NCBI GenBank assembly: GCA_051294375.1
Contig: CM119265.1
Coordinates: forward strand, 403,305-467,304
Length of the DNA: 64,000 bases
Direction: 5' to 3'
DNA from: Paraspadella gotoi
Taxonomy: Eukaryota > Animalia > Chaetognatha
Positions 1 through 26,504 of the stretch are shown here, piece after piece; the first letter of the stretch is position 1, and each line of letters begins with the position of its first letter. The notes under the pieces were generated by a model, which saw only the letters and a program-made list of their open reading frames with translations, searched no databases and had not been told where the DNA came from. The position numbers and the translations under genes are program-made.

Positions 1-806
1 GCCTTCTAATTGGGAGTTGAAATCCGTGAGAAGCTTGACGGGGTATTTGTCATCGATTGTTTGCGCGTTGAGGCGACGGTAATCGCCACAACAACGCCAA
101 CCTCCGTCCGGCTTCCCTACAACGTGGAGTGGCGACGACCATTCCGATTTACCCCGTTTAGCAATGCCGAGGGAGACCATTTTCTCCAGCTCCCTTTTCG
201 CGACGGCAAGCTTTTCCGGGTCTAAACGGCGTGCTCTCGATTGGCAGGGCCTGCCCTCCGTTGGGATCGAATGCGTTACTCCATGGCGCGGCTCTTTTAA
301 TTCGAAAGTGGGCGTGGAGAGAGACGGAAACGAGTCGAGTAATTTGTAAAATTTCTCCCCCTGCCTGTCGACGAAGTTGACATGGGAAGTAGTCTCTGCT
401 GCTGATGATGCTGCGATCGTCGAATAATCTTTGAGATCCAGTAACAGCCCGTCTCTATGGTTTGGCGCCAAATAATTCTCGGCTAGAAAGTCCGCGCCCA
501 AAATATGCTGCTTCACATCTGCAATGACGAATTCATATTGAAATTGGCGGTTTCCGAGTTGCACTACTCTTTTCGTTGTCCCATAGCAGCCGATTGGCGA
601 GCCGTTGGCCGCTTGAAGGCGAATCTTCGGGTCAGGGCCGCCTTGTCGCTGTGCTGCCGTTGGCGGAACGATCGAAAGAAGGGCTCCCCCATCCACGAGC
701 CACTTCGTGCGGTCTTTGGCGTCGCGGATGTATAGGAGGTCACTCGACGCTGGTGATTGATTCATCTCCTGGGGGACGGCGTTCACCGACGTCGTCCCCC
801 TTTGGA
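1..806 (-). CDS. pol: Pol polyprotein N-terminal part (aspartic protease and start of RT), -1 frame to gag, truncated by window edge
   Basis: Manual translation gives KWLVDGGAL (protease) and ...[20 protein letters not shown]...[36 protein letters not shown] (RT). Confidence 0.88.
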
Positions 807-813
807 GTTTCCC
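771..813 (-). promoter_or_regulatory. -1 ribosomal frameshift signal (G GGA AAC plus downstream GC-rich hairpin)
   Basis: Minus strand GAG GGA AAC, 6-nt spacer, then GGGGGACG...CGTCCCCC stem enclosing the gag stop; same arrangement in E2, E4 and E6. Confidence 0.8.
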
Positions 814-1850
814 TCCTTCTTACGCTGAGTGTCGTTGTACCTGGAGCATCCTGGCTCACAGGACCACGCTTCCTCTCCAAACTTAACGTGTTTGTGGCAA
901 AGCGTCGTCAACTTGGATTTGGTCTTGCCTTTGTGGATCTGGTTGTGCTTCTTTTTGTTGTTGAAGGCCTTCTTGACGTTGGCGCCGACAGCATTGACGG
1001 CGTCGTCGTCCTCTGAATCAGATTCGAGTCGCTCTACGTTGCTGATGAACGTCGTCGATTGGCGAATTTTCACATTGCCTTCATTATCGAAATGCCTGTC
1101 TGCTATTTCGCACAACTCCTTTGCCGACAGGTCGTCCGCTTTCTCCTCGAGTTGACGTCTTATTTCGAGTGGGAGTTCCCTGAGGACCTTCTCTTTCCGG
1201 ACGTCGTCGATTGTCAAAGTTTTTGTCCTCTCTTCGAGCTGAGCTAATAATTTAGACGGTTTTAATCCGTCGGCGTCGAGAGGATCGAGGAGGTTGACGG
1301 CCTGTTGGCGTCGCGTGAGGCCGTACTCCTTGCGGAGATATCCTAAGAAAGCTGACCATGTTGCCTCCGTTGCCTCGCCGTATAGAAACTGGTTAATGCG
1401 AGGATCTACCTTGACGCCAATCTTGGACTCAAGATGAGCAAACTTCGTTTTTGGAGCAGTGATGCCGGCGCGTGTATATGCCGCTTCCACGCGTTTTATC
1501 CAGATTTCGATATTATCCTTGTCGAAATCCGGAAGCTCCGGCTTTCGACTGGATGCCCTTTCGAGGGCGCGCGTGGCGGCGGCTAAAGCGGCGCGAAGTT
1601 CGTCGTTTTCGTCCTGGAGGTCGCGTTGGCTGTTTCCCTCTGACGCCATGTCGGCGTCGACGAAGTTTTCGGCGTTGATTTCTCTGAAGTTGAACGAAGG
1701 AGTAGCGTCAGCGAAGACGGGGGAGGTAGAGCGTGACCTAGCGCCGCGTCCAAAGCCTATAGGGACCTGTAGGCTCGATGCAGCGTTGCCTTGACCTTCA
1801 GCGTTGCGCTGGGCTGATCGTAGGCGGGATCGGACGTCTGAGTCGCTCAT
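783..1850 (-). CDS. gag: Gag protein (355 aa) with CHCC zinc knuckle
   Basis: Intact ORF; KPELPDFD..NIEIWIKRVEA domain; C-terminal CHKHVKFGEEAWSCEPGC fits Cx2Hx9Cx3C, typical of CsRn1-clade Gag. Confidence 0.92.
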   Translation of the reverse strand: MSDSDVRSRLRSAQRNAEGQGNAASSLQVPIGFGRGARSRSTSPVFADATPSFNFREINAENFVDADMASEGNSQRDLQDENDELRAALAAATRALERASSRKPELPDFDKDNIEIWIKRVEAAYTRAGITAPKTKFAHLESKIGVKVDPRINQFLYGEATEATWSAFLGYLRKEYGLTRRQQAVNLLDPLDADGLKPSKLLAQLEERTKTLTIDDVRKEKVLRELPLEIRRQLEEKADDLSAKELCEIADRHFDNEGNVKIRQSTTFISNVERLESDSEDDDAVNAVGANVKKAFNNKKKHNQIHKGKTKSKLTTLCHKHVKFGEEAWSCEPGCSRYNDTQRKKEGNSKGGRRR

Positions 1851-2042
1851 GAGTCGATTCGAAATGCTCGTCGACTAGTGGTGCCGTTTTTTGACTCCGT
1901 GTGGCGGTCGAAAATGCAAGGAAATAATAGGGGTGTGAGCAATTGGATGATTGGCTTAATAACCCCGATTTCCTCACCCAATCTTACCTCAGGGGAGATT
2001 GATTCGCGTTAGACCGCCTGTAGAAGGTTGGTTGCGTTTTAA

Positions 2043-2055
2043 GTCGAGTTCACCA
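2043..2055 (-). promoter_or_regulatory. Primer-binding site, tRNA-Trp-like variant (TGGTGAACTCGAC)
   Basis: TGG begins 2 nt after the LTR CA end on the minus strand; similar to the canonical TGGTGACCCCGAC of E6. Confidence 0.75.
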
Positions 2056-2057
2056 AG

Positions 2058-2755
2058 TGTGGTGAGGCATATGAGTTGAACCACAGCGCGACGACGTTGC
2101 CTTACACACCTTGTGACATATGTGCTGAGCATCATGACGATCTTAGTCTTTTAGCGTTAGACGTTAGATGGCGCAGGGAAAAGTAGGTCACATGATTTGT
2201 AGATTATATTGAAACGTTTATAATTAATATTTGAAGCGAGATTAAATATGAGATTAATATTAAACGTTTGTTTATTAAGATTCGTTGTGAGATTATTAAT
2301 TCGAATGAAGAATAATTAATTGAAGATTAATTTATTTTATTGGATTAATAATTTCACTTGTTGTAAAATCGAGTTCTCATCATTTAATGTACTCAATACA
2401 TTTCGGGATAGATTTAAAACAATGTTTTTTAATGTTGTTTTAACATTATATTAACGAGATCAAAAACAAGAGTAAAATGAATCAGACTTCAATCATTGAA
2501 GTAAACAGTTAATAAAACAAAAGCAGTTGAAATGGCGGTAAGACATCTCTAGTTGAGTTCTATTAATCTAGGAAAAACAAAAGGCTTCGTTCTTGGTTTA
2601 AAGCTTTAAAACAGGTTTTAATCTGGCGATAAAACATGGCCTCTTGGTTGGCTGAGAGGTTAAACTCGAAGCGTCCCAAGCCTGAGTTCGAGGTTCGAAT
2701 CCCGGCTGCTGGATGAATTATTTTCTCACCAGATAATTCGCTCAAGTTGGCCGCA
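2058..2755 (-). repeat. 5' LTR of E1 (family A, ~700 bp)
   Basis: TGTGG...CCGCA termini on +; bounded by the PBS and by ACCCT telomeric repeat; blocks of similarity to the family C LTR (e.g. AAAACAAAAGGCTTCGT, TCGAAGCGTCCCA). Confidence 0.82.
2638..2712 (+). ncRNA. tRNA-like Pol III type-2 promoter module inside the family A LTR
   Basis: A-box TGGCTGAGAGG 2649-2659, B-box GGTTCGAATCC 2692-2702 (43-nt spacing), TTTT at ~2721; cloverleaf incomplete. Confidence 0.7.
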
Positions 2756-2785
2756 ACCCTACTAACCCTTAACCCTAACCCTAAC

Positions 2786-2822
<37 letters not shown>

Positions 2823-2949
2823 CCCTAACCCTAAACCCTATACCCTAACCCTAACCCTTAACCCTAACCTACCCCTAACCCTAACCCTAACCCTAACCCT
2901 AACCCTAACCCTTACACCAACTGCTAACCCTAACCCTTACCCTTAACCC
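2756..2949 (+). repeat. Telomeric (CCCTAA)n spacer
   Basis: Direct reading. Confidence 0.98.
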
Positions 2950-3333
2950 TGTGGCATAAGGCGCTAAGTGGGCGAAGATGACTATCCGTTAACTCTCTAT
3001 TACCTCCCTCTAGCAGACCATGGAACGAGTCCTGGGCTCTTGCGATACAGGCTTGAGGGTTCGCCAACGCCCCCAAGGCCGGCTTACCCGGCCGTCCTCA
3101 CTCTTCCCGCAAGGTCAGCTACCGGCGCTTGTGCATTTGAACCCGGCTGAAACCGGGCCTCCTGGTCCCAACGGTGTTTAGCGACCGTCCCTCCCATTTT
3201 TGACCTGAATTGTGGTCCATGAGCCCGAATCGGCGTCTGTAGCTCAAAATGAGCCACCGGGGTCCACATACTTGAAAAGCAGTTCTATGCTTTATAGGCT
3301 GGGGGTTTGAACCATTGCAATGCCCCGACTACA
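2950..3333 (-). repeat. TRIM 3' LTR
   Basis: Aligns by eye with 3468-3797 apart from an ~60-bp extra segment near 3150-3210; adjacent to the PPT. Confidence 0.8.
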
Positions 3334-3467
3334 TGCCCCCCCAGATTGTCAACCCACCCTGCACTGCTTTCCAGCTGGAGGGAGGGGAGCAATTCGTTCG
3401 CGCACGTCATGGGCCTGATTCAGAAGGTGGGAATACGCATCGACAGGATGCACGGTCTCTCACCAGC

Positions 3468-3797
3468 TGCTGGGAATAAGGCCGGCTAAGTGGGCGCCTT
3501 GAGTTATGACTATTTCCCGTAACTTCTTATATACCCCCTCTATGCAGCACAATGGAACGGCGTTCCTGGGCTTTTGCGAACCAGCGCTGAGGGCTTTCGC
3601 CACGCCCCCAAGGCGGCCTGTACGGCCGTCCTCACCTCTTTCCCGCAGGTAGGTACCGGCGTTGATTGAACCCACCGTAGCCTTAGTGGTCATGAGCTGA
3701 TGCGCTGTTTACTCAATGAGCCACTCGGGTCACACTGAAAGAGGTCATGCTTATACGGCGCGGCACCCTGTGACACCTAGGCAATGCTCGGACTACA
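3468..3797 (-). repeat. TRIM 5' LTR with sense-oriented tRNA-like A/B boxes
   Basis: Minus strand TGGCTCATTGAG (3723-3712) and GGGTTCAATC (3673-3664); adjacent to the PBS. Confidence 0.8.
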
Positions 3798-4212
3798 CCA
3801 CTAACCCTAACCCTACTTACACCGCTAACACCATAACCCTAACCCTAACCCTACTAACCCGTACCCTAACCCTAACCCTCAACCCTAACCCTAACCTAAC
3901 CTACCCTAACCCTAACCCTAACCCTAACCCTTAACACCCTAACCCTACCCTAAACCCTAAACCCTTAGACAAACCACCTAACCCTAAACCCTAACCCGTA
4001 ACCCGACCCTAACCTAACCTACCCTAACCCTAACCCTAACCCTAACCCTGACTAACTCAACCTAACACCTAACCCTACCCTAACCCTAACCCTAACACCT
4101 TAAACCTAACCTAACCCTTAACCCTAACCCTACCTAAACCCTTAACTAACACCTAACCCTAACCCTAAACCCTAACCCTATACCCTACCCACACCTGACT
4201 AACCCTAACCCC
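3798..4212 (+). repeat. Telomeric (CCCTAA)n spacer
   Basis: Direct reading, with many indel errors. Confidence 0.97.
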
Positions 4213-5068
4213 TGTTGGCGCGGCGTGCATATAGTGGAGCCCCAGACTTGACGAAGCACCGCTACGCCGTTAAGTGTAGTGTCACTAGACTCTTACAGAC
4301 ATTCCAAGCCAGATAATTAATGAATGATTAGCTTGGGCCGCAGGGAATCTTTGTGCGCTATTCTGAATGTATATCAGTTTTATTCGCTAGACGGCAGCAG
4401 TAGCAATCAGATGGTCCGTCGTTTAGTCTCTTTCGAATTAGGCACCATTAAGGACGGTTTTAATTTAGCAGTTGAAATTAAACGGAGTTAATGTTAGTTC
4501 GAGCATTAAGAATCTTTGAGACTACTACCGGTTTTTAACACTTCTTTAATTCAGCCGCATCTGAATCATTCTTTCAGAATTAGCAGCATTCTAATTCTTT
4601 AGATTTTATTTCGATTTGATCTTTATTTTCTCATGTTTTTAATGTAGCTATTTACATTTTAGTGAGAGATTAAATATAAAACAATGAGATCAAATCATTA
4701 CGTATTCATGTATTATTTGACATGAACATTAACAAAACCGCAACCTTGCATTTCAGATCTAGAAAACACAAACTCTCAGAGCGATAACACAATCGATTGC
4801 AGCAGCAGCTGGCCGAAATGATTTGGCGTACCGCCCTCCTGACGGAGGAAACCAACTAGTTTTGTAGGAAACAAATAGATGTACATACGCGAATATCTGT
4901 TTTAAATGCTTTAGGTTCGAATTCGAATTCAATTCGATTTTCAGAAGCCAGTTTAGCGCTTGCGCTATAATCGCTGGGCTTCTCGCACTCTTCACGATAC
5001 CAGGATCGCAATCCTAGATCGGTGGCCGCATCTATTTATACAATAGTAGGTCGATCGAAGCATCTTCA
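4213..5068 (-). repeat. 3' LTR of E2 (family B)
   Basis: Direct repeat of 10688-11443, 11560-12309 and 16076-16824; ends ATCTTCA followed by TCCCCC (PPT). Confidence 0.9.
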
Positions 5069-5399
5069 TCCCCCTTGCTGATTAAATATATAATCTTTAT
5101 AATATTTACATTAAAATTTGAAAGTTAATAGAATTAAAATTGTTGTCGCTCCGGTAATGTGCTGTGATTGTGTACAAAATATATAAACCGTATTTCTTAA
5201 CATTGCGGGTAAATCGTAGTTTCATTTCGACGAATTGAAATAAAAAATTGACCTAGATTTCTAGAAATTGACGAAGGTATAAAATCTGTACAAATAAATT
5301 ATTGTAAAATACTGCTAAATTGGGTTTTCCCAAGAATACTTTAATATACAAAAACAACCAAAATATTTATTCTAATAATGGCTTAAGGGAGCTCGGCCG

Positions 5400-8300
5400 T
5401 CGAAGTCAATGCCGAGGGTGCGATGCTGTCATGGAGGCGAGATTTTCAAGCTGACTGGCTTCGACCGGTTGACCTTAAGGCGGCAAAATTATTTGGTTTC
5501 TATTTTCTACTTGGATTTTTCTTTTGCTGTCCCTGCTTGATCAACTCTTTCTGCAGGAACCTCCCAGCGGCGATGCTTAGGGGCGTTCGCGTCGCACGCT
5601 TTGTGACCGCCTTGTTCGAAAAGTTCGTTGGCAGCGTTTGGCTCTCGAGCAATACGCGCTAATAGCGTTGGTGCTTCATCTTTTTGCTCCTCTCGGCTTA
5701 GTTGTGCTTTGTCTGTTGTTCTAACTGATTGTCTCTTTTTCTCTCGCTACGTACTGAACGTTCGTTAGCGTTGGTCAATGTCCATCCGTCATGGCGAGGT
5801 GCGCTGACAGGTACAAGGAAGGGAAGGATGGGTAGCCAAAAAAAACGCGCGGGAAGGAGGGGGGTTGTTGCCGGGGAAGTGGGGGAAGGTTTTGGTGCGC
5901 CTGCCGGTCGGCGGGAAGGATGCGCAGGATGCGACGGAGGAGGAGCGAGGGAGGAGGTAATTGGAGGAGGGCACAGCTGCGCGCGTTGGATTTGCTCTAT
6001 TCGCTGCGGCCGAGGTGAGGTTCTTGACTGTCGGCGCGTGGCTGCCCTGCGTTCTGACGCCAGCTGTGCGGCGGTCTCGCCCTGGCCTTGCTCTCTGGAT
6101 GTCCTCTGCGGCGGGTGTCGACCTCCAACTCGTCGTCACTAATCCATGCCGGTTTTATTCTGGCGATGTTGACGGTTTCCCTTCCCACGTTTGGAACTTC
6201 GATTGTCATATTTAGCCCGTTTCGGCTAATAACGCGGTAAGGACCGTCATAAGGTGGCACCAAGGGGGGGTGTACGCCTGCCTTGCGTACAAACACGTAT
6301 TTTGCAGAGTCGAGATTTGCTGGTAAATGCACCGCGGGCTGTCGGTGGGCGGAAGTAGGCGTGGGCTGGAGTCTGGCGACCTCGATACGCAATTTCGCCA
6401 ATTGATTCTGACGTTGTCGATTTAGAGAGTCGTTGTCGGGTTGAATGTCGCCGAGTAAGCTTCCAGGGACGCTAAGACCTTCGCCGAAGACCAGATCCGC
6501 CGCGGAGGCGCCGATGTCCTCTTTGATTGTCGTTCTAATCGCGAGTAACGTCAATGGCAATTTCCAGTACCATTTCTCTCTCGATTCTTTTGTCAACGCC
6601 ATAATTGACTCTTTGAGCCGTCTGTGAAATCTTTCCACAAGCCCATTTGCTTGTGGATGATATGCGGTAGTTGTCTGATGTTTTATGCCCCAGTTTTTCA
6701 TTAACTGTTGCCATAATGTCGAACAAAACTGACTACCTCGATCTGTGGTTATGACGGCCGGCGTTCNNNNNNNNNNNNNNNNNNNNNNNNNNNNNNNNNN
6801 NNNNNNNNNNNNNNNNNNNNNNNNNNNNNNNNNNNNNNNNNNNNNNNNNNNNNNNNNNNNNNNNNNNNNNNNNNNNNNNNNNNNNNNNNNNNNNNNNNNN
6901 NNNNNNNNNNNNNNNNNNNNNNNNNNNNNNNNNNNNNNNNNNNNNNNNNNNNNNNNNNNNNNNNNNNNNNNNNNNNNNNNNNNNNNNNNNNNNNNNNNNN
7001 NNNNNNNNNNNNNNNNNNNNNNNNNNNNNNNNNNNNNNNNNNNNNNNNNNNNNNNNNNNNNNNNNNNNNNNNNNNNNNNNNNNNNNNNNNNNNNNNNNNN
7101 NNNNNNNNNNNNNNNNNNNNNNNNNNNNNNNNNNNNNNNNNNNNNNNGAATTATGTTAAATATCTTCTTTCGCCATGCAGCTGGGACGAATGGGCGAGCT
7201 GGACCATTAGATATATCCACTAGTAATTCTTGTTCACCCACGCGGATTTTTCTAAATGCAANNNNNNNNNNNNNNNNNNNNNNNNNNNNNNNNNNNNNNN
7301 NNNNNNNNNNNNNNNNNNNNNNNNNNNNNNNNNNNNNNTTTCGAAGTCAATTTCGAAGCTGGTCATAGACGCTATTACAGCGTTGACCTCCTCGAGGCGG
7401 TCAGGCTTGACGCTGCGCTCGAGGTGATTCTCTCGTTGCTCTTCTGATGTGGTTGTTGAGGGTGATGCTTCCTCCGTGGGTGGTTGTGTTTGCGTTATGG
7501 GTGGTGGATTATTTGGTCGTGAGAGGGCGTCGGCCACCACATTGGCCTTTCCTTTCAGATAGCGGATATCTGTGGTGAATTCCGCTATTGCCGACAACTG
7601 GTAGGACTGACGAAGAGTTTGAGGTTCCGTTTTTTTGCGGATTGCCGAGACCAAGCTCTGATGATCCGTATAAATCGTGAACGCACGACCTTCGACCCAG
7701 TGCCGGAAGTGGCGGACTGCCCTGAACGCTCCGAAGAGTTCCTTGTCGAAGGGTGGCCACATTTTTTGATTTTTGGCTAATTTTGCTGAAAAAAACGCTA
7801 GTGGTTCCCACCCTTTGGGACCTCGTTGCTCCAGAACTGCGCCTACAGCTTGATCAGATGCGTCGGTAGTGATGCAAAGCTGCGCGCCGGACCTTGGATG
7901 ATGGAGTAGTGCCGCCGAGATGAGGCCCTCCTTGATGGCCTCGAATGCTTGCTCGCACCCTGGTGTCCAATTCAACGATTTTGGCTTGCCGCTTAAGGCG
8001 TCGTACAGAGCGGCGCAGCGGTGGGCGACTCCTGGAATGAAACGCCTATAATAATTAACCATACCAAGGAAGCGTTGAAGCTCCTTGATAGTGGTTGGGC
8101 GTGTCGTCTCTCGAAGTGTCTGGACGCGTTCAGGTAGTGGTCGGACGCCGTTTTTGTCGACGAGGAATCCCAAGAACTCGAGGGACTCCTGTCCGAGTAG
8201 GCATTTTTTCGTATTTACTACGAGTCCATTTTCATCCAGAGCTTTGAAGACTCTTTCCAGATCTTCCAGGTGCTCCTCCGGAGACGATGATGCGACCAAA

Positions 8301-9385
8301 ATGTCGTCTAAGTAGACGAACGTATGGGGGATCTCACCCAAGATCTCATCCATCAAACGCTGAAAGTCTTGTCCTGCGTTTTTCAAACCGAAAGGACAAC
8401 GAGGAAAGANNNNNNNNNNNNNNNGAGTGATTACAGCCGTCTTTTTTACATCTTGAGGATTTACCGGGATTTGATGATAACCTTTGAGCAAGTCTATCTT
8501 CGAGAAGATAGTCTTGCCCTCCAGTTGCGCGTTGAAGTCCGTTAGTAACTTCACTGGGTAACGATCCTCGACGGTCTGGGCGTTGAGGCGACGGTAGTCG
8601 CCACAACNNNNNNNNNNNNNNNNNNNNNNNNNNNNNNNNNNNNNNNNNNNNNNNNNNNNNNNNNNNNNNNNNNNNNNNNNNNNNNNNNNNNNNNNNNNNN
8701 NNNNNNNNNNNNNNNNNNNNNNNNNNNNNNNNNNNNNNNNNNNNNNNNNNNNNNNNNNNNNNNNNNNNNNNNNNNNNNNNNNNNNNNNNNNNNNNNNNNN
8801 NNNNNNNNNNNNNNNNNNNNNNNNNNNNNNNNNNNNNNNNNNNNNNNNNCTTTGAGTTCGAAAGTAGGAGTGGACAATGAGGGAAACGACTCAAGCAGCT
8901 TGTAATATTTTTCCCCTTTTCTGTCTACGAAATTCACATGAGTTGGCTGCTCCTCCGCTGTCGACGCTGCTAATGGTCGAGTAAGTCCCTTTAGATCTAA
9001 GAGGAGTCGCGTCTCGATGATTTTGGCGCCTAAATAGTTTTGCTGGCCATGAAATCAGCGCCTAGGATATGTTGCTTCACTTCCGCTACGACAAACTGGT
9101 AGTCGAATTTTCGATTTCCAAGTTGAACAGGTGCTTTGGGTATACTAGTGCGCTATAGGCAGTCGGGGATGTTTGAGTTCCGTTGGCTGCTTGCAATTTC
9201 AATGAGCGGTTCTGGGCCATTTTTTCGCTGCTGGGGAGTAGGCGGAATGATAGATAGTAGGGCTCCGCCGTCAATTAGCCACTTAATTCGATTCCCGGCG
9301 TNNNNNNNNNNAAGTAGTTTGTTGGGTGCCGGTGAAGAGTTCGAGGTTAGGGGGACGGCGTTCACCTGCGTCGTACCCCCTTTCC
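5400..9385 (-). CDS. pol: Pol polyprotein of E2 (PR, RT, RNase H, IN), broken by N gaps and indel errors; 3' end approximate
   Basis: WLIDGGAL; [24 protein letters not shown]; [27 protein letters not shown]; [36 protein letters not shown]. Confidence 0.9.
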
Positions 9386-10500
9386 GTTTCCCTCCTTCTT
9401 CTTCTGTGTCTCGTCAAAACGGGAACAACCTGGCTCGCCCAGGGACAACGGGTCACTCCCAAATTTCACATGCTTTGGAGCAAAGAGTTACAACAAGCTT
9501 CGCTTTTCCTTTGTTTTTTGACGCTTGCTGGTTTCGTCGCCTGTTGTTGTTGTTGTTCGACGACTTGCGAGGGCGCTGATCGACCGCGTTGATGGCGTCG
9601 TNNNNNNNNNNGTCGGAGTCGAACTGATCTCGACGACCTTTTTCGATTGCGTTTACTAGAGAAGTCGTTTGGCGGAGCTTCAAATTGCCTTCGACGTCGT
9701 AATGATGATCGGCTAATTTGCATAATTCTTTAGCTGAGATGCTATCCGCTTTCTCCTCTAGTTGTCGTCGTATATCCGTTGGCAGCTCGCGGAGTATTTT
9801 TTCCTTACGTATGTCGTCGACGCTGACGTTGCGCGTTTTTTCCTCNNNNNNNNNNAACATCTTCGATGGTTTAGCGCTGTCGAGGTTTAAAGCGTCGAGA
9901 AGATTGGCGGCTTGCTGCCGCCTCGTGAGGCCGTATTCACTCCTCAGGTAACTGACGAATTGCTCCCAAGCTGCTTCAGACGGTTCTCCAAATAGGTATT
10001 GATTAATCCTTGGATCTACATTTATACCTATTTTAGATTCAAGATGTGCGAATTTAGTCCTTGGATTCGTGATTCCCGCGCGGACGTAAGCAGCCTCGAT
10101 TCTCTTTATCCATACTTCGATATTATTTTGATCGAAGTCCGGAAGCTCCGGTTTCCGGCTTGAAACGCGTTCCAATGCGCGCGTGGCGGCGGCGAGGGCG
10201 GCGCGGAGTTCGTCATTCTCGTCGCGTAGGACTTCTTGCCTTCGGCTGTCAGATTTGGAACTGGTGGTCGGTCCTCCAGTCGCCAGACGGCGTCGTTCTC
10301 GTTCGCGTTGCCTCGTAGTGAACGTGAAGGTCCGGCTCGGGCGTCGAAAAAACGCCGGCGAGATGGAGCGCAGAAACTGTTGCCCTCGGCCAAACCGAAT
10401 GGGACTTGGAGTCTTAATCTCTTCGTTCCGACGATCCTCTGCCGCGGCGCTCGCGTTGAGTCTTGAGCGTAGACGCGAGTTCTAAATCGTATCCGCTCAT
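9362..10500 (-). CDS. gag: Gag of E2 (frame-broken in the assembly)
   Basis: ORF 9453-10175 is homologous to E1 Gag (KPELPDFD..NIEVWIKRIEA); inferred ATG at 10500, stop at 9362; GGGAAAC slippery site 9386-9392. Confidence 0.85.
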
Positions 10501-10687
10501 CGAGGTCTTTTTCTCCGTCGAATCCGTTTAGAAGTGGGAGAAAAAGGGAAAAAAACGTGTTGAGAAGATTGGGAGACTACTCACTTAATCCCGAAATTTC
10601 CAAACCCAATCTCACCTCAGAGAAGGTATTTTCCGCTGGCGTTACTCCCCTTCGTTCGTTGGAATTGTTCTCAGTCGTTCTCACCAT

Positions 10688-11443
10688 TGTGGCGGGTTAT
10701 ATAGTTGAGCCACACTTGACGAAGGACCGCCCTAGCGTTAGTGTCACAACTCTAAGACATTAGCGCGATAAATATGGATGATAGGCTTGGCTCAGGGAAT
10801 TCTGTGGCCGCTATATAATTATATCAGGTTTATTCGTGACGGAGAGTAGATCAAGATGGCTGTCGTTAGATCTTCGAATTAGGCACATTAAAGACGGTTC
10901 TTATAGCAGTTGAAATAACGGAGTAATGAAGATTCGAGATTTAAGATCTTTGAGACTACTCGGTTTTTAACTTTTTTAATTCAGCGATCGAATTCTTTAG
11001 ATTAGCAGATTAATTCTTTAGCATTAATTCGATTGAATTGTTTTTTCTCATGTTTTAATTGTAGCTATTACATTTTGTGAGAGATAATAAAAAAACAAGA
11101 GTATCAATAGTTATTTCATGTTATATTTGTCATGAAACATAAAAACCGAACAAATGATTTCAGTTAGAAAACAATTCTCAGAGGTAAACAATGCATTGCT
11201 AGCAGAGCGGCGAAATGATTGGTAGCCCTCTGACAGGGGAAACAACTAGTTTTGTAGGAAACAAATGATCAACGAATATCTGTTTCTAAATGCCTTTTAG
11301 GTCTCGAATTCGAATCAATTGATTTCAGAAGCCAGTTTTAGCGCTGCGGCTAATCGCTGTTCTTCGATCTTCGATACCAGCGGATCGAAAATCCTCATCG
11401 GGGCGATCTATTTATTAAATAGTAGGTCGATCGAAGATCTTCA
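10688..11443 (-). repeat. 5' LTR of E2 (family B, ~755 bp)
   Basis: TGTGG...CTTCA; PBS on the left, ACCC telomeric repeat on the right. Confidence 0.9.
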
Positions 11444-11559
11444 ACCCAAACCCTAACCGCTAACCCTAACCCTAACCCTAACCCTAACCGCTAACCCGTC
11501 TACCCTGAACCCTAACCCTAAACCCTAACGCGCTAACCCTAACTCCTAACCCTAAGCCC
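11444..11559 (+). repeat. Telomeric (CCCTAA)n spacer
   Basis: Direct reading. Confidence 0.97.
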
Positions 11560-14500
11560 TGTGCGCGGTTATATAGTTAGCCAGCAGCTTGACGAAGACC
11601 GCTACGCGTTAGTGTTCACAACTCTAAGGACATTAGCGATATAAAAATGATAGCTTGGCGCAGGAATTTGTGGCCTATTGATGTAATATATCAGTTTATT
11701 CGTTGACGGAGAGGTAGATCAAGGATGGCGCGTTTAGATTCTCGAATTAGGCCCACATTAAGACTCGTTTTTAATTAGCAGTTGAATAACGCGAGGTTAA
11801 TTGTTAGTTCGAGATTAAATGCTTGAGACTACTCGGGTTTTTTAAACTTTTTAATTCAGCGACCTCGAATTCTCTTAGATTAGCAGATTAATTCTTAGAT
11901 TTATCTGCGAGATTTGATTGGTTTTTCTCATGTTTTAATGTAGCTAATTACATTTGTGAGAGATAATTAAAAACAAGGAGTATCAATAGTTATTCATGTA
12001 TTATTGATGAACATGGGAAAAACCGATATGATTTCAATTAGAAAACAATCTCAGAGGTAAACAATGATTGCTAGCCAGGAGCGGGAAATTGATTGTAGCC
12101 CTCTGAGGGAAACAACTAGTTTTGTAGGAGAACAAATGAATCAACGAATATCTGTTTTAAATGCTTTAGTCGAATTCGAATTCAATTGATTTCAGAAGCC
12201 AGTTTTAGCGCTGGGCTATAATCGCTGGCTTCTCGATCTGTCGATACCAGGATCGATCCTGATCTGGGGCGATCTATATTAAAAATAGTAGGTCGATCGA
12301 AGATCTTCATCCCCCTTCTGATTAAATATATAATACTTATAATTATTTACATTAAAATTTGAAATTTAATAGAATTAAAAATTGTTGTCCGTCCAGTATG
12401 TGGTGATTGCTCGTACAAATATAAATACCCGCTCTCATTTCTTAACATTGGGTTAAAATAGTAGTTTCATTTCGAAATGAAGATAAAATTGACGATGGAT
12501 TTCTAAATTACGAAGGGTAAGAAATCTGTACAAATAAAATTTGTAAAGATTACTGTAGAAATTGGGTTTTCCCAAAATACTTAATATACAAAAAACAACC
12601 AAAATATTATTCTAATAATGCCGTAAGGAGTCGGCCGTCGAAGTCAATCTCTCTCTTTNNNNNNNNNNNNNNNNNNNNNNNNNNNNNNNNNNNNNNNNNN
12701 NNNNNNNNNNNNNNNNNNNNNNNNNNNNNNNNNNNNNNNNNNNNNNNNNNNNNNNNNNAAATACAAAAATACTAAAAAACTTTCTACATTTCCACATCTC
12801 CATACTTCACACTATGCCGGGACTGTCGGTTGCCGGAGCCAATGCCGAGGATGCTGATGGAGGAAGATAACAAAGACTGGCTCCGGTAGCTGATCAAATT
12901 AGCTCCGACGGCGGGATTTTGTCTTTTGTCTTTTTGTTGTTGTTATTGTTTTCGTTTTGATTTCTTTTCAGCATCTCTTTGAGTACAACAGCATAAGTGG
13001 GTCGAGTATAATGTTTGTTGGAGAAATTCTCTGAAGTTGGTTTCGAGAAGCGACACGTTGGCTCAATATTTCTCGCTTCTCGCTTGTTGTTGTTGTTGTT
13101 TTCCTCTTTTTCATCTCTCGGTGGAGTCTCGAATGCTGCTCCACCCTGGTGTCCAATTCAACGATTTGGCCCTCTGCCGCCTTAAGGCTCGTACTCAGAG
13201 CGGCCCGCGAGCAGCAGGTTGGCGACTCCTGGAATGAATCCTATAATTAATTAACCATACCCAGGAGCGTTGAAGCTCCTGATAGTCGGTGTTGGGCGTG
13301 TCCGTCTCTCGAAGTGTCTGGAACGGCGTTCAACGTAGTTGGTCGGACGCCGTTTTTGTCGACGAGGTAATCTCCAAGAATCTCGAGGACTCTGGTCCCG
13401 AGTCAGGCATTTTTTCGTATACTACGAGTCCTTTTTCATCCAGAGCTTTGAAGACTTCTTTCCAGAATCTTCTCCAGGGGCTCCTCCCGGAAGGACGATG
13501 AGTGGCGGACCTAAAATGTTTCGCTAAATAAGTAGTTGACGAACGTCATGGGGGATTCACCACACTGATCTCATCCATCCAAACGCTGGAAAGTCCCTTG
13601 TCCTGTCGTTTTTTTCAAACGCGACAAAGGACCAACGAGGAACTGACATATCAATTCCGAACGGAGTGATTTACAGTCTCGTCTTTGATTTTACATCTTC
13701 TAGGATTTACCGGGATTTGATGTATAAACCTTTGAGCCAAGCTCTATCTTCGAGAAATTAGTCTTGCCCTCCAGTGCGCGCCGATTGAAGTTCCGTAGTA
13801 ACTATCACTGGGCTCGTAACATCCTCGACTCGGGCGTTCTGCGGCGTTGAGGCGACGTAGTCGCACACACAGCGCCAGCCCGCCATCTGGTTGGGAGACA
13901 CGCTGGCAGTGGCGACACCACTCTGACTTGTCCCCTTTTTGGCGATTGCCTGAGTGCCGACCATTTTTTCTAGTTCTGCGTTTTGGCCCACTGCCAACTT
14001 TCTCTGGAGGTCGAGGCGCCTCGCTCTTGATTTGGCAGGGGCGCCCTCGATACGTATTCGAGGGTTACTCCATGCTTTGGCGCTTTTGACGTTCGAAAGA
14101 GGAGTGGACAATGAGGCGGAAACGACTCAAGCAGCTTGTATATTTTCTCCCCTTTTCTGTCTTACGAAATTTCACCATGAGTTGGCTGCTCGCTCGCTGT
14201 CGACGCTGGCTATTGGTCGAATATCCTTTTAGCTATCTAAGAGCGGAGTCCATCTCGGATATTTGCTCTAAATACCTTTTCTGCCATGAAATACACGCCG
14301 CCTAGGCGGATATGGTTGCTTTCACTTCCGCTACACAAACTGGTAGTCAATTTTCGATTCCAAGTGAACAGTCTTTGTTACTGTGCACATAGCAGGTTCG
14401 CATGGGAGTTCCGTTTGGGCTGCTTGCCCAATTCATGAGCGGTTCTGTGGCCATTCTTTTCGCTGCGATCGGAGTAGCGCGGAGATGAATAGATTAGTAG

Positions 14501-16824
14501 GGCTCCGCTCGTCAATTAGCACTCTAATTCATTTCCGGCGTCGTCTCGGAATGTAAATAGTAGTTTGGTGGCTCTGTCGACAGCGCTGCGTCGCGACATA
14601 GAGAGCTCCGTCAACCGGCTTCGGCTGGTGGCGAGCTCTCGCTCACGTGGTTAAAGTGTTCACGGTTAGGGGACGCGTTCACCTTGCGTCGTACCCCCTT
14701 CCGCTTCCCTCCTTCTTCTTCTGCTGTTCTCGTCAAAAACGGGAACAACCTGGCTCGCAGGACTAGCGTCCTCTCAAATTTCACATGCGTGGAGCAAAGG
14801 AGTAAGAACAAGTTCGCTATTTTCCTTTTTTTTTTTGACGCTTGCCTGATTTCGTCGCCTGTTGTTTGTTGATTGTCGACGACTTGCGAGGGCGCTGATC
14901 GACTCGTTGATGCGTCGCTTCGCTCTATGAGTCGGAGGTTCGAACTTGATCTCGACGACCTTTTTCGATTCGCGTTTACTAGAGGAAGTCGTTTGGCGGA
15001 GCTTCAAATTGCCTTCGACGTCCGTAATGCATGATCGGCTAACTTTGCATAATTCTTTAAGCTTTGAGTGCTATCCGCTTTCTCCTCAGTTGTCGTCGTA
15101 TATCCGTTGGCAACTCGCGGAGTCATTTTTTCTTACGTATTCGTCGTCGACGCTGACGTTGCGCGTTTTTTCCTCGAGCTGTGCTAACACTCTTCGATGG
15201 TTTACGCCGCTGTCCGAGTTTTTAAAGCGTCGAGAAGAATTGGCGCTGCTGCCGCCTCGTGAGCGCCGTATTCAACTCCTCAGGTAACTGACGAATTGCT
15301 CCCAAGCTGCTTCAGACGGGCATTTTTCTTTCCCCCCAAAAAAAAAAAATTTAGGTTATTGATTAATCCTTGGCACTCTACATTTATACCTATTTTAGAT
15401 TCAAGATGGGTGCGAATAGTCCTGGATTCGTTGGATTCCCGCGCAAGGACGTAAGCAGCCTCGATTCTCTTTATATCCATTACTTCGATATTATTTTGGA
15501 TCGATAGTCCGGAAGCTCCGGTTTCCGGCCTTAAACGCGTTCTCAATGCGCGCGTGCGCGGCCGGCCTGAGGCGGCCGAGTTCGTCATCTCGTCGCGTAG
15601 ACTTCTGGCCTTCGCTGTCAGATTGCGAACTGGCTCTTGGTCGCGCCTCCATGTCGCCATGACGGGCGTCGTTCTCGTTCGCGTTGCTCGTAGTGAACGT
15701 GAAGCGTCGCGCTCGGCTCTCGATAAAACGCCGGCGAGATTGAGCGAGAAACGTTGCCTCGGCCAAAAACGCAATGGGACTTGGAGTCGAAATTTTCTTC
15801 GTTCGACGAGGCCTCTGCCGCGGCGTGCGTTGAGCCTGAGCGGAGGACGCTGATTCTTTAAACTCTCGGATCGCTCATCGAGGTCTTTGTCTCCGTTCGA
15901 ATCCGTTTAGAAGTGGGAAGAAAAAGGGAAAAAAATGTGTTGAGAAAGATTGGGGAAGGACTACCTCATCTTTAATTCTCCGAAACTTCCACACCAATTC
16001 ACCTCAGAGAGTATTTTTCCGCTGGCGTTCGTCCCCTTCGTTCGTTGGAATTGTCTCAGGTCGTTCTCACCATGGTGTGGCGTTATATCAGTTTGAGGCC
16101 ACAGCTTGACGCAGCACCGCTACGCGTTAGTGCTCACCACTCTTAAGACGATTAGCGGATAATTAATGATGATAAGCTTTGGCGCAGGAATTTGTTTGGC
16201 GCTATGGGATGAATATATCAGGTTTATGTCGTACGGAGAGATAAGATCAAGATGGTCCCGTCTTAGATCGTCGAATTAGGCACATTAAGACGGTTTTATA
16301 TTAGCAGTTGAAATAACGGACTGGTTAATGTTATTCGAGATTAAGATCTGAGACTACCGGGGTTTTTAAACTTTTGTAATTCAGCGATCGAATTCTCTTT
16401 GATTAGCAGATTAATCTCTAGATTATTCGATTTGATTAGTTTTTTCTCATTTTTAATGTAAGCTATTACATTTTGTGAAGATAATAAAACAAGAGTATCC
16501 AATAGTTATTCACTGTATTATTGATGACATAAAAACCGAACTGAATTTAGTTAGAAAACAAATCTCAGAGCGTAAACAATTGATGCCTAGCCAGAGCGGG
16601 AAAATGATTGGTTAGCCCTCTGAGCGAAACAACTAGTTGTTAGAAGACCAAACTGACTCAACGAATATCTGTTTTAAATGCTTTAGTCGAATTCGAGGTT
16701 CAATTGATTTCAGAAGCCAGTTTAGCGCTGGGCTATATCGCTGGCTTCCGATCTTCGATTACCAGATCGAATCCTGATCGGGCGATCTATTTATTAAATA
16801 GTTTTAGTCGATCGAAGATCTTCA
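11560..16824 (-). mobile_element. Second family B copy E3; error-rich, lacks RNase H/IN, chimeric across the 100-N gap
   Basis: LTRs 11560-12309 and ~16076-16824; gag ~14679-15878 and PR-RT ~13130-14705 collinear with E2; 12759-13128 instead matches family C 17720-18080. Confidence 0.8.
16711..16785 (+). ncRNA. Degenerate tRNA-like module in family B LTRs (also ~4941-5025, 11326-11405, 12193-12270)
   Basis: Four-copy consensus: TAGCGCTGGG (weak A-box), then ~43 nt later CAGG-ATCGAAT-CCTG (T-arm/B-box-like); overlapping AGAAGCCAG/CTGGCTTCT inverted repeat. Confidence 0.45.
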
Positions 16825-16939: not shown

Positions 16940-17590
16940 TGTTGCCCTGACACAGAGGCCAGCCACAGCGTGACGGAGGGAGTCGACAACCAGGAGGGTC
17001 ACGTGACTAAGTGGCGTTATTGATGACACGGAAGAGAAGTTGATGACCGCCAATGCAGGGAAAAACTGTGCCCGATGATAAAATTTTTTGTTTTTTACAT
17101 TCGAAGTATTAATTAGATTGAGAGAGATAATAATATTAAACGAGAAGTAACTTTCATTTGAAGGTTAAAACTTTTAATGTCATTCGAATCTGTTTTGTTT
17201 TCATCTTACTTTAATTATTTATTACATTAGATGAGATTAAGTAAAAACGAGTTTGAGCGTACATTAAAATAACATTATGTATTCAATGAGTAAAAAGCGA
17301 TACAAGACTGAATGTTTTCAGTTTAACAGATTCAAAAGTTAACTGTCTAGAAACAAAATACAAAAAGAGAGGACATCTTGTTTTAAGATGATTAACGCAG
17401 ATTAAAAACAAAAGGCTTCGTCTTGGTTTTAAAGTCTATGTAGTTGAATTTGAGAATCAGGAATTGATAGCCGCCTGGATGGCTGAGGACCTTAAGTCGA
17501 AGCGTCCCAGATATCAGATCCCGGGTCTCGATCCCGGACGGAGGTGGTTAATTGTTAATTTGATTAGATCCGATCTGTAAGGCTACTACA
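16940..17590 (-). repeat. 3' LTR of E4 (family C, ~650 bp)
   Basis: Start matches 23280 and 26033 (TGTGGCACTGACACAG); internal blocks match 23490-23760. Confidence 0.85.
17470..17548 (+). ncRNA. tRNA-like Pol III module inside the family C LTR
   Basis: A-box-like TGGCTGAGG at 17480; 5-bp T-stem CCGGG-TCTCGAT-CCCGG at 17521-17537; GCCGCCT/AGGTGGT acceptor-like pairing; homologous to the family A module. Confidence 0.68.
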
Positions 17591-17749
17591 TCCCCCCCTG
17601 TCGATATTTATACTTAATAATAAATAATCGCAACACATATTTACAAAATAAACTGTACAATGTCCACAATCAATTACTGACCTTACGAAAAAAAATTGAA
17701 AAATTCAAAGATAATATCAAAATACAAAAATACTAAAAAAACTCTACAT

Positions 17750-20700
17750 TCAATCGGGTCCATCTTACCTCATGGACTGAACGAGATTGCGAGCCAAATC
17801 GAGATTCGACCTGAACTGTAGCCGCAAAAATAATCAAAAGATGCATCCAGGAAAATACTCTAACGATATGTAATGTACTTAAATGTTCTTTAACTGTTTT
17901 CGTTGACTTTCTTCAGCATCCTTCGCTAGTACACAGCTAAGTGGGCGGTAATGTGTTGCGGAGCATCTGCCGAAGTGGATCTGATGGAAGGCAGACTAAC
18001 AAGTTGGCTCAGATGAAATTTTCTCGCTTCTCGCTTGTGTTGCTTGTGTTTTCCTCTTTTCACTCTCTCGGTCTGGAGTCTGCTTCACGTGGAGGCCGGG
18101 AAGGAATGTTGAAGCGGGAGGAAAAATATGAAAGAAGAAAGCTAGGTGGGGTCGGGGGAGAGGTGGGGTTGATTAGGGGGAGGTGAGCGGAGGCAGCTGA
18201 GAGGAGGAGGAGGAGACGGGGGGGAAGAGAGGATCGGCGACGCTGCGCGGTTGTTTCTCGATCGTGGTCTTGACGGTCGCTGCTGGTTGCCTTGTCCCTA
18301 ATTCCTGCTCGACGGCCAGGCGCTCGGTTCTTGTTGTGGTTCTGGATAGTCGACTTGGTTCGTCCTCGTCACAATCCCACGCCGGTTGTGACGCGCGCAA
18401 CTGTTCACCCGTTTTCGCGGCGCGACGCTAGGTATCTCGATTGTCATGTTTATTCCCTGTTTCGATGAATTACCGCGGTAGGCCCCTTCATAAGGATGGG
18501 ACGTAGCGGCGGTGGACCGCCTGCTACGCCTGATGAACGACGAATTTGGCGGAGTCACACGATGTTTGGCGGGGTGATGGTGATCCGTTGGGGTTGTGGT
18601 CGATGAAGCTGATGTTTGCGTGGTTTGTAGTCTGCTCTTACCTAACGACGCCGAGATTGGCCGTAGCTTGTTTCGCCTCTTTGTGATTCATTTCAATGAC
18701 CACTGTTTGCCGCGCCGCCAAGGATGCGCCGGAGGGACGCCGGACCGCCAATGTTTTACCTTGAAGACTTAGTNNNNNNNNNNNNNNNNNNNNNNNNNGT
18801 TCAGCTGACGATGCGCCTACGTCCTCTTTGACGGTCGTCCTAATTGCCAATAGCGTCATTGGCAACTTCCAGAACCATTTCTCCTTGTCGTTGTTGGCTA
18901 AAGCGATCAACGACTCCTTCAGTCTCCTATGAAACCTCTCGACGAGGCCGTTGGCCTGGGGGTGATATGCAGTCGTTGTCTGACATTTGATCCCCCATGT
19001 TTTAGTCAGTTGTTTCCAGAGATTCGATGTGAACTGACTGCCTCTGTCGGTTGTGATGATTGATGGCGTTCCAAAGGTCGATATCCAATTTAAACTAAAC
19101 GCGTCGATAATCGTTGGAGTTAATGTGTTTTCAATTGGAATCGCTGCTGGCCATCTAGTGAATCTGTCCACTATTGTTAATAAGTAGGAATAGCCGTTTG
19201 ATCTGGGCATTTTGACCAGATCGATGTTTAGATGTTGGAAACGACGGTTTGGTACTCTGAACTCTCCAATTTCTGGTACTACATGTTTTGAGATTTTCGC
19301 TCGCTGGCAATCGAGACAATTTCTGGCCCAGTTAGAAACATCCTGCTTCATGCTGTTCCATACGAATTTGCTCGCTATGGCCTTTCTGGTCGCCTCTACT
19401 CCTGGGTGGCCCAGGCCATGGATAGCGTCAAAAACCTTTCGTCTCCAAGCTACTGGCACAAACGGTCTAGCAGGGCCGTTCGAAATATCCGCCAATAAGT
19501 CATGATCGCCGATTCTAATTTTTCGAAAATTTAGTCCAGATCGAGCGTCTTCTGCGATGCGTTGGAAGTCGGCGTCTAGCGCCTGATCGCGAGCCATTTG
19601 CTCAAAATTGATCTCAAAATCTGTCAGAGAGGCTATTACTGCACCTAGATCTTCCAGTCGATTTGGCCTTCAATCGTCGTTCAAAGCTTTTCTTTGCCGT
19701 TTCCAGAGCCTTCCGAAGGCTGTCCAAGTTTACTGAGCTTATTTTCGCGGTAGCTGTCGTTTGGCTGTCTTGCATGGCCGGGCGATTTTCCGAGGCCGAA
19801 TTTGGCGGCGGAAACGGGTCGGTAGCTGTCTCTTGGCTGTCGCGAGTAGCTGAGTGAGTCTTGGCTGTCGAATTTGGTGGCGCGATCGAATTGGGAGGTG
19901 TCTTTTGGCCGACGATGCTTGCTATTTCGCTCGAATCGCTCTCTGCGCTCGCGGTAGCTGCTGTTTGGCTGCGTTGCGTGGCTGAGGCTTCTTTTTTGGC
20001 GTTTTCTGATGCGTTTTTGTCGGCGAGGATTTTCTGCGCTGTCGGGAGAGTGGCGTTTGGCCGGGAAAGCGCATCCGCTACGACATTCGCCTTTCCTTTC
20101 AAGTAACGTACGTCAGTTGTAAATTCTGCGATAGCGGATAATTGGTAAGATTGTCTTACTGTTTGAGGCTCAGTTTTCTTCCTTATAGCGGACACTAGGC
20201 TTTGATGGTCTGTATACAACGTGAAGGCCCTGCCTTCTACCCAGTGGCGGAAGTGCCTTACCGCTCGAAAGGCGCCAAAAAGCTCACGGTCAAACGGAGG
20301 CCATAGCTTTTGGTTTTTTGCAAGCTTTGCAGAGAAAAAGGCCAAAGGCTCCCAGCCCTTTGGCCCTCGCTGTTCCAAGACCGCTCCGACTGCGTGATCG
20401 GACGCGTCGGTGGTGATGCACAACTGTGCGCCCGTGCGTGGATGGTGAAGGAGTGCAGCTGTGATCAGGCCTTCCTTTATGGCCTCGAAGGCTTTTTGAC
20501 AATCGTCGGTCCATTGCCAGGAAGTCTTAGGTTTGCGCTGGCGGCTCTATTAGCCGCGCCGCAGCGGGTGGCGACCTTAGAATGAATCGTCTGTAATAGT
20601 TTATCATTCCTAAGAATCTCTGGAGCTCTTTGATTGAAGTGGGCCTCGTCGTCTCCTGGAGCGTTTGTAATCCTTTCAGGTAGCGGCCTCACTCCATGCC

Positions 20701-23061: not shown

Positions 23062-23834
23062 GTGATTCGAATTTGTCCCAGTCGTGTCACCAGGGGGTAA
23101 GCGTGGAGAAGAGGAAAGAAAAAGGGACGAGCGTGAGCGGATTGGGGTAATCAGCCTAATCCGAATTCCTTCCTCGGCCCCAATCTCACCTCAAAGAGTC
23201 TTTTCCCTGGCAGGTGTCCCCCTGCTTGAGTTTGCAAGGCTTGTTTCAATTATAACGAGTCTCTTGTTGTTTCACCATGTGTGAGATCTGACACAGAGAC
23301 ACTGCAAAGCGGATGTCAGCAGGATGCGTCAGTAGACATACAGCCCGAGGCAATCCTTTGAAGTCTTTGTCGCGAGCATTGTCGATTATGCAATGATGGT
23401 GCGAGTCTATTGAGAGAACGGAGACCAGTGGAAATGACCGAGCAGCAATCACGGTTTGCATGGGAGAACGTGCACCGATGAATAAATGCTTTTTTGTGTG
23501 TTATTTATACATTCGAAGTATTTAATTAGATTGAGAAGAGATAATTAAGTATTCAAAATACAGAGTCAAGAGTCCATTATCATGTCATAATATGAAGTGA
23601 ATGAGGACACTCTAACTTAAATAAGAGGAGTCAATCTTACTTTATTTAAATAGTTCGTATACAGTACAAATGATAGGTCATATGTATTTGCATCTCTCAC
23701 TTTCAATTATAATAATGTTATTTATTATCATGTATATGATGAGATTAAGTAAAAATATCTCTACAGATATCTTTGACTGTTTTTACCTGAGGAGTAGAGA
23801 CATATTACANNNNNNNNNNNNNNNNNNNNNNNNN

Positions 23835-26048: not shown

Positions 26049-26504
26049 NNNNNNNNNNAGGTACAAAGGCTACATGCCCCCCAGATAAAATTCGGGGACA
26101 TTCGTTATTTTATCTAAAAATTAATACATTTTGCCTTTGTATAAAGTATTTAAACGGTAAAATGGGACTTTTCGTTTAAGTGTGGGTTAAATTGTAACAT
26201 TTAACCTATAAATTCATCGAGATATTGTAAAATAGATAATTAAATACTTCGAAAAGTATTTATCGAAACAATTGTAAAGGTAACGGAGGGGAAACGAATT
26301 AAAATTAATTCGTTAACGGTAAGTTGAATAATTAACAGTTGTAAAGATGATTCTTTGCTGTTCTTACAGCATGGTACAATTGAGTTGACGATTTCGACGG
26401 TAATAATCACGTAACGGAACGATTTGACAGAAATCGTTAAAGTTTTGAAAATACAAGTTTAAAAAGAGGTGAATTAGAATAAAGTTTGTAAAAGACTGAC
26501 CCGT

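Follow-up and report, generated by a model that had tools for sequence, protein, structure and literature searches.

The question raised by this locus is how an element that carries no genes has come to lie within telomeric repeats, and by which machinery it would be transcribed and inserted there. The window, meaning the whole stretch of 64,000 nucleotides that was analysed, is a chromosome-end region in which LTR elements lie between short TTAGGG tracts (1-32123), followed by a 10-kb tract (32123-42284) and by AT-rich subtelomere. Since the repeats read CCCTAA on the plus strand, the chromosome terminus is to the left of the window. In its distal part, a first-pass annotation had described a short TRIM with an LTR made mostly of a Pol III-type cassette.

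Anatomy of the element

The element occupies 848 bp of the minus strand (2950-3797), is embedded in TTAGGG repeats, and is composed of a 5' LTR, a primer site, a short core, a polypurine tract and a 3' LTR. Its parts and flanks are as follows (E2 to E5 are neighbouring Ty3 elements, listed below).

2762-2949, plus strand: telomeric repeats of the TTAGGG type (CCCTAA on this strand), distal flank of the TRIM (TRF; perfect units cover 64%)
2950-3333, minus strand: 3' LTR of 384 nt, TGTAGTC...GCCACA (LTR alignment)
3145-3211, minus strand: 67-nt block between the A and B box of the 3' LTR (pairwise alignment)
3334-3341, minus strand: polypurine tract, G7 then CA, with a junction near-identical to that of E5 at 26082 and similar to that of E4 at 17598
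3342-3447, minus strand: non-coding internal core with no homologue in the window
3448-3465, minus strand: primer-binding site starting TGGTGA, tRNA-Trp-like, common to six neighbouring sites and nearest to those of E2/E3
3468-3797, minus strand: 5' LTR of about 330 nt, with an inner edge uncertain by a few bases (LTR alignment)
3798-4211, plus strand: telomeric repeats, proximal flank of the TRIM, with the junction 4-mer GTGG on the element strand (TRF and junction reading)

The longest stop-free frame of the element has 82 codons. The two LTRs match each other by BLAST at 76.8% over 194 columns (E 3.7e-22), and their global alignment scores 211, where 200 shuffles averaged 5.7 and never exceeded 34. 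The boundaries at the junctions were placed by eye at TG/CA. These values bear out the earlier description of a non-coding element of about 850 bp with LTRs, primer site and polypurine tract, and it is practically certain that the TRIM is real.

The length difference of about 60 bp that had been noticed between the LTRs was found between the A and B boxes, where the 3' LTR has 67 nt and the 5' LTR 12 nt (net 55), and where the subtelomeric cassette described below has 8 nt. Neither the 67-nt block nor the 55-nt excess has a homologue within the window, and the block is a read artefact or a later insertion. Three-way MAFFT alignments misplaced this extra block, and pairwise halves were used instead for the column counts.

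Apart from its length, the LTR pair can be compared column by column. It has 18 substitutions and 52 gaps, 46 of which are of 1-3 nt, which makes ungapped columns 94% identical, with 2.9 indel events for each substitution. As a yardstick of noise, five pairs among the four LTR copies of E2 and E3 give 95-97% ungapped identity and 2.1-4.7 indel events per substitution, and the E2 LTR adjoining the TRIM has 856 nt against 750-754 nt in its three sister LTRs. Perfect hexamer units cover 42-64% of the flanking arrays. We read the differences between the TRIM LTRs as mostly uncorrected long-read error. If so, the insertion may be young, the animal itself may have two identical LTRs, the element is probably shorter than assembled, and the only trustworthy features are those on which the two LTRs agree.

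A subtelomeric relative of the LTR

A sequence related to the TRIM LTR is found beyond the long telomeric tract, together with a short match to the LTR start.

44198-44452, plus strand: subtelomeric cassette, aligned to 288 of the 330 nt of the 5' LTR, with T4 at 44418 (BLAST, alignment)
44564-44582, minus strand: inverted stretch, about 110 bp past the cassette, that matches the first 19 nt of the TRIM LTR at 19 of 20 columns (E 0.008)

The claim that most of the TRIM LTR is homologous to this cassette holds: the cassette fills 87% of the 5' LTR and matches it by BLAST at 72.7% over 227 columns (E 1.2e-15), with 74.0% over 169 columns for the 3' LTR (E 1.5e-14). Its designation as SINE-like is doubtful. 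The homology does not stop at the tRNA-like start: in the 5' LTR it continues for about 30 bp upstream, across a TATA-like motif, with a score of 29 that was reached in none of 2000 shuffles and at none of 892 window positions; with the 3' LTR alone, the upstream homology is not significant (1096 of 2000 shuffles). A retroposed SINE starts at its own transcription start and would not carry upstream sequence. Moreover, neither an A-rich tail nor a target duplication is visible at the cassette, and its 3' end passes into a (GTCY)n repeat.

Given the homology upstream of the tRNA-like start, a SINE seems a poorer description of the cassette than an LTR remnant or a Pol III gene. The cassette, a diverged relative of the TRIM, may be an LTR remnant or else the Pol III gene or SINE from which the LTR was drawn; our preferred reading is a rearranged relative of the LTR or a Pol III gene. 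Because it lies outside the telomeric repeats, relatives of the TRIM need not be telomere-specific, and if it is LTR-derived, such relatives occur also outside these repeats. The 19-nt match to the LTR start also resembles an inverted motif of the (GTCY)n repeat family.

This interspersed family is found at 44449-44540, 45567-45806, 50855-51148, 52824-53073, 56724-56979 and 61015-61284, and one truncated copy abuts the 3' end of the cassette. The family looks DINE/Helentron-like. A second copy of the cassette, identical at 329 of 331 columns, lies near 49502-49756 inside a 5.3-kb tandem segmental duplicate (42317-47586 and 47687-52784, across a 100-N gap). The two halves are 92% identical, differ by indel-type changes, and may be one sequence assembled twice. 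The stem-rich body of the cassette (44320-44360) differs from that of the TRIM (3575-3635 and 3050-3100) at positions where both LTRs agree, and some of these changes keep pairing by eye (T-A to G-C), in a comparison that is too noisy to score.

The neighbouring Ty3 elements and the telomere junctions

The TRIM is surrounded by larger elements on the same strand.

1-2755, minus strand: E1, Ty3 element represented by its 5' part, with a gag frame of 363 aa and the 5' junction GGGT
4213-16824, minus strand: E2 (4213-11443) and E3 (11560-16824), two copies of one Ty3 family with telomeric repeats between them
16940-23800, minus strand: E4, Ty3 element with an LTR starting TGTAGT after a G7 tract; right limit approximate
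26037-32123, minus strand: E5, Ty3 element of CsRn1-like type whose gag (361 aa) and pol (1243 aa) frames are both open, candidate helper family by its polypurine tract junction

The domain order RT, RNase H, integrase identifies these neighbours as Ty3 elements, and their best solved relative is Ty3 Gag-Pol. E5 carries a tRNA-Trp primer site, a C-X2-H-X9-C-X3-C (CHCC) gag motif and a GPY motif; its 4-bp duplication is visible at its 5' junction only, and its 3' LTR is collapsed at a gap. Trp primer site, CHCC, GPY and 4-bp duplication are the marks given for the CsRn1 lineage in the part of PMC3630058 that was available, and by these marks E5 and its neighbours are assigned as CsRn1-like. They differ from that lineage in sitting in one orientation and phase of TTAGGG and in having an antisense A/B cassette in each LTR, no such targeting being described in the same part of PMC3630058. 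Clusters that look like the neighbours' gag are DUF7041, for which Mollusca is the commonest recorded phylum among very few records, a tentative hint that the host is an invertebrate. None of 47 candidate relatives of pol was confirmed in metagenome contigs and neither of two in viral contigs. A motif scan of metagenome contigs and one for the junction motif in viral contigs returned 0 matches.

The TRIM and four neighbouring Ty3 insertions have a common orientation and telomere phase, and every element points towards the terminus. Beyond the 3' ends, the strand reads GGGT (TRIM), GGGG (E2), GGGC (E3) and GGGT (E4), so that all four start with GGG; before the 5' ends it reads GGGT (E1), GTGG (TRIM), GGGT (E2), AGGT (E3) and GGGT (E5). 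GGGT is exact at five of the nine junctions, close to the accuracy of the arrays themselves (415 of 732 and 37 of 54 exact), in a count where E2 and E3 are one family, perhaps not independent, and where the 5' junction of E4 and the 3' junction of E5 are lost in gaps. The GGGT after the 3' end of the TRIM, as after that of E4, agrees with the orientation and left-junction phase that had been claimed to be those of the autonomous elements. Its 5' junction, GTGG, is the worst of the nine, with GGGT in three of the four other 5' junctions. The flanks of the TRIM thus read GGGT at the 3' end and GTGG at the 5' end, in noisy sequence and with a duplication length defined only modulo 6; given the GTGG, a 4-bp target duplication is no more than putative at this element.

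Further links between the TRIM and its neighbours come from the priming sites. The polypurine tract junction matches that of E5 over 18 nt with one substitution and one gap, this being the only other such site in the window, at a level reached by 7e-5 of window positions. The primer site starts with TGGTGA as do all six neighbouring sites and has 8 nt in common with E2/E3, while its match to E5 is weak (3.5% of positions reach it). Since the polypurine tract points to E5/E4 but the primer site is closest to that of E2/E3, the evidence does not single out one helper. Taken at the level of sequence, these features indicate that the TRIM has probably been mobilised by this CsRn1-like lineage.

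A first alternative is that the TRIM is an ordinary dispersed element of the Helenus type, which landed in the telomere accidentally or owing to a mild preference on the part of its helper. Helenus families number hundreds to thousands of copies in the part of Kojima 2024 consulted (PMC10886601), and a dispersed habit would accommodate the cassette relative in the AT-rich subtelomere, the first 19 nt of the LTR nearby, and the imperfect 5' junction of the TRIM. However, an orientation and 3'-junction phase equal to those of the Ty3 neighbours would arise in about 1 in 12 random insertions into the array by simple arithmetic, the polypurine tract junction matches that of a telomere-inserted neighbour, and BLAST found no second full copy among the 21.7 kb of non-telomeric DNA that make up the right end of the window. 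We consider dispersed insertion unlikely. Mobilisation by the surrounding telomere-inserted Ty3 elements is the preferred reading; the label of a parasite of telomere-targeting machinery rests on one copy. With one copy examined, family-wide telomere specificity of the TRIM is evenly balanced, perhaps leaning slightly in its favour.

Within the 10-kb telomeric tract there are short non-telomeric islands at 32844-33096 and 36519-36806, and copies of the TRIM are absent from the islands of this tract. The second of them is rich in T and matches nothing else in the masked window; it probably reflects a stretch of low read quality.

Probably a greater surprise than the TRIM is the array at 1-32123, distal to the 10-kb tract, in which no fewer than four different CsRn1-like Ty3 families share their orientation and their phase within TTAGGG, in a layout perhaps affected by the assembly. 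In each of the four autonomous LTR families, a tRNA-like cassette with A and B boxes lies close to the 5' end of the LTR and antisense to the element (2637-2715, 11330-11410, 12198-12270, 16715-16785, 17470-17545 and 31922-31995), which may be a shared trait of the Ty3 lineage of this window. In a 5' LTR, such a cassette points outward into the C-rich telomere strand, and about four to five of seven LTR copies have no T4 before the LTR edge.

Promoter-like boxes and transcription

Two stretches of the TRIM carry promoter-like boxes.

3663-3755, minus strand: promoter-like unit of the 5' LTR, with a TATA-like motif at 3755-3750, A box from 3723 and B box from 3672
3143-3256, minus strand: 3' LTR boxes A (3256) and B (3143), 113 nt apart, with T4 at 3249 in the A box and T4 at 3278 upstream of it

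In line with the first-pass annotation, the A boxes (3723 and 3256) and the B boxes (3672 and 3143) are sense to the element and close to the 5' end of the LTR. The spacing between A and B is 51 nt in the 5' LTR and 44 nt in the cassette, and the TATA-like motif precedes the A box by 32 nt in these two and by 40 nt in the 3' LTR. TRGCY and GGTTC are present in both TRIM LTRs, with an A box that lacks the final YGG, and both keep GGTTCA where the cassette reads GATTCA. A strict scan for A/B pairs returned nine in the window, compared with 2.4 +/- 1.9 in 30 shuffles; the cassette was found, and neither TRIM LTR is among the nine. No tRNA was called in the whole window by ARAGORN or Rfam (Rfam 0 at E<=1), and the 173 calls made by ARAGORN at a lowered threshold are uninformative. 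The tRNA-like head shows no cloverleaf fold, the 5' LTR RNA fold has a z of -0.85, and an Rfam search gave no 5S rRNA match at E<=1 in the window or at E<=10 in 2600-3850.

The T4 of the cassette (44418) is replaced by GTTAC and GTTAAC in the two TRIM LTRs. The reported absence of this T4 is real, and both LTRs agree on it, but its weight is weak: no T4 occurs from 3730 to 3334, and this stretch is free of T4 in 67% of shuffles (P=0.67), for which reason the missing T4 was rejected as strong evidence for Pol III. The two A4 runs noticed earlier in the 3' LTR are T4 on the element strand, at 3278 and 3249; the 5' LTR has T3 and T2 in their place, and sequencing errors are the probable cause.

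In tRNA geometry, Pol III starts 7 nt before the A box, which would bring the predicted start from 3735 on the minus strand to nearer 3730. A TATA-like motif 32 nt before the A box is the geometry expected of a Pol III upstream element. A T4-free stretch from 3730 to 3334 is needed for a Pol III genomic transcript, yet would be frequent by chance, so that it makes Pol III use only plausible.

Transcription could also be driven by Pol II, with the SINE-like piece carried passively, the boxes a relic, and the start at the TATA-like motif or supplied by read-through from a neighbour. Such a promoter would fit the degenerate A box, the absence of a tRNA call, the TATA-like motif of both LTRs and the cassette, and the weakness of the T4 argument. 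It fits less well with the Pol III-like distance of 32 nt that separates this motif from the A box, in the cassette as in the 5' LTR, with the GGTTCA kept in both LTRs against GATTCA in the cassette, and with a cassette that leaves little else of the LTR to serve as promoter. Pol II is considered distinctly improbable here, and transcription of the TRIM by Pol III somewhat more likely than not.

Ribozyme readings and assembly quality

The LTR body lacks a terminator, and an RNA end might instead be set by a self-cleaving ribozyme within it, as in a retrozyme-like element. The plant LTR retrozymes resemble the TRIM in being non-autonomous and Ty3-dependent, with primer site, polypurine tract and a structured LTR, according to the part of PMC6765202 that was available; they differ from it in that the TRIM LTRs have no hammerhead core. 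The cassette does match the Twister-P5 loop at 17.7 bits (E 0.31; 14 bits in another scan), and the loop with a downstream GAGGG recurred in 8 of 200000 Markov resamples, in a post hoc test. This score is far below the gathering score of 37.6, and the TRIM LTR has a longer loop and no twister match. A hammerhead descriptor gave 0 matches on either strand of the TRIM and one core-like match in the cassette, with stem I unpaired by eye; an HDV-like fold was found in none of five stretches, and five local Rfam scans returned sub-threshold matches only. With no core, no fold and no match, hammerhead, HDV-like and twister readings of the TRIM were rejected. Two wasp Helenus LTRs with a Trp primer site, Helenus-2_SyJa and Helenus-2_SyUm, show a hammerhead-like core behind the tRNA-like head in our own reading by eye of Data S1 of PMC10886601, the available main text of which contains the word ribozyme once. 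Overall, a retrozyme-like nature of the TRIM is very improbable.

The twister-like P4/L4 loop followed by GAGGG at 44360-44415 of the cassette, sub-threshold at 17.7 bits, is possibly a decayed ribozyme.

An assembly artefact, such as a chimeric or mis-patched long read, would agree with the raw-read quality of the flanking arrays (perfect-unit cover of only 42-64%) and with the unexplained 55-nt excess of the 3' LTR, but can be dismissed almost entirely, given that there is no gap between 1 and 6766, that the primer site and polypurine tract lie exactly at the LTR edges and match independent neighbours, and that read error cannot build such an order of parts.

Comparison with known elements

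The closest known group is Helenus (TRIMp3), described in Kojima 2024 as a TRIM with tRNA-like sequence in its LTRs. In the available part of that work (PMC10886601), animal Helenus elements have a Gypsy partner, a 4-bp duplication, a length of 311-1263 bp and conserved TRGCY...YGG (box A) and GGTTC (box B) motifs; a Trp primer site occurs in the two wasp families named above, with the tRNA-Trp complement in Fig. S2. The present TRIM is likewise non-coding and shorter than 1.3 kb, with two LTRs carrying sense A/B-like boxes, a primer-binding site and a polypurine tract, and its TGGTGA primer site is shared with the Gypsy elements beside it. It differs in its position in a telomere array, the string "telomer" being absent from the main text of PMC10886601 as available. 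Furthermore, most Helenus LTRs viewed by eye in that source have the tRNA-like part near the 3' end, followed by a T run, whereas in the TRIM it lies in the 5' half of the LTR with a body of about 190 nt behind it and no T4, and the tRNA likeness is weaker. Six short TRIM motifs were not found in the Helenus supplement text, where line breaks could hide matches. On balance, it is highly likely that the TRIM is Helenus-like in nature, and its membership in the group is likely. Kojima 2024 states that a pairing with a helper is lacking for most TRIMp3 elements (PMC10886601). Pol III transcription is not validated for Helenus either.

The TRIM had been presented as a Cassandra-like but tRNA-type element. 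Its tRNA-type, promoter-like LTR is indeed seen, but it is not a new type, since it fits the definition of Helenus. Cassandra, a plant element, has a 5S-derived Pol III cassette in each LTR and a defined terminator in the 3' LTR, according to the same partial source (PMC10886601). The likeness is that of a TRIM with a Pol III-type cassette in each LTR, and the difference is that the TRIM has no 5S match.

Retroelements associated with telomeres include TRAS/SART, MoTeR, FoTeR, HeT-A/TART/TAHRE and Ty5 (PMC10088271, PMC12857005, PMC4700185, each in the part available). With these the TRIM shares insertion at chromosome ends and, with the non-LTR groups, a fixed orientation. In the papers compared, the known repeat-specific telomeric retroelements are non-LTR elements with a sequence-specific endonuclease, whereas the TRIM and its neighbours are LTR elements; Ty5, a Copia element, is tethered by Sir4 to silent chromatin and is not placed in phase in the repeat. 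An LTR element inserting into telomeric repeats was not found in the literature searched, a search with most subscription journals outside its coverage. Within this literature, we found no precedent for the site in the telomere array; the tRNA-type TRIM itself, and with it the idea of a tRNA in the LTR, is already known. A telomere-repeat Ty3 family is said to have been named MERCURY; it is absent from the literature search, and the targeting by the helper may be in print.

Proposed mechanism

The explanation that we favour by a small measure is that of a gene-less, Helenus-type TRIM, probably transcribed by Pol III and likely copied and inserted into TTAGGG by its CsRn1-like neighbours. Its anatomy, its position and the shared junction motifs are read directly, and from them the steps of transcription, packaging, priming and integration can be proposed. 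Pol III would start near 3730, 25 nt below the TATA-like motif, and the transcript would read through the rest of the 5' LTR and the core into the 3' LTR. The RNA would be packaged by the helper Gag and primed by a tRNA-Trp-like primer. The ends of the cDNA (TGTAGT...CACA, G7 tract) would be accepted by the helper integrase, which would insert the TRIM among telomeric repeats and duplicate GGGT (4 bp modulo 6). With an LTR body that lacks a terminator, the end of a Pol III RNA would be undefined, and read-through into the G-rich repeat would follow.

A bolder form, which we put forward tentatively and hold to be more doubtful than not, is that the TRIM is telomere-repeat-specific, Pol III-driven and terminator-free, riding a phase-fixed CsRn1-like integrase, and that the promoter of its 3' LTR reads into the G-rich telomere strand and yields a TERRA-like RNA. 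If this were true, several Ty3 families and a non-autonomous passenger in a single TTAGGG phase would imply an LTR integrase that recognises either the repeat or some telomere protein, with the 0.85-kb TRIM representing the minimal cis ends for it. A helper and a TRIMp3 element would then be paired in one locus, with a Pol III promoter aimed at the chromosome end.

Past its GPY motif, the integrase of E5 (26779-27140) continues for about 110 aa as a proline-rich tail, where a targeting determinant might be sought.
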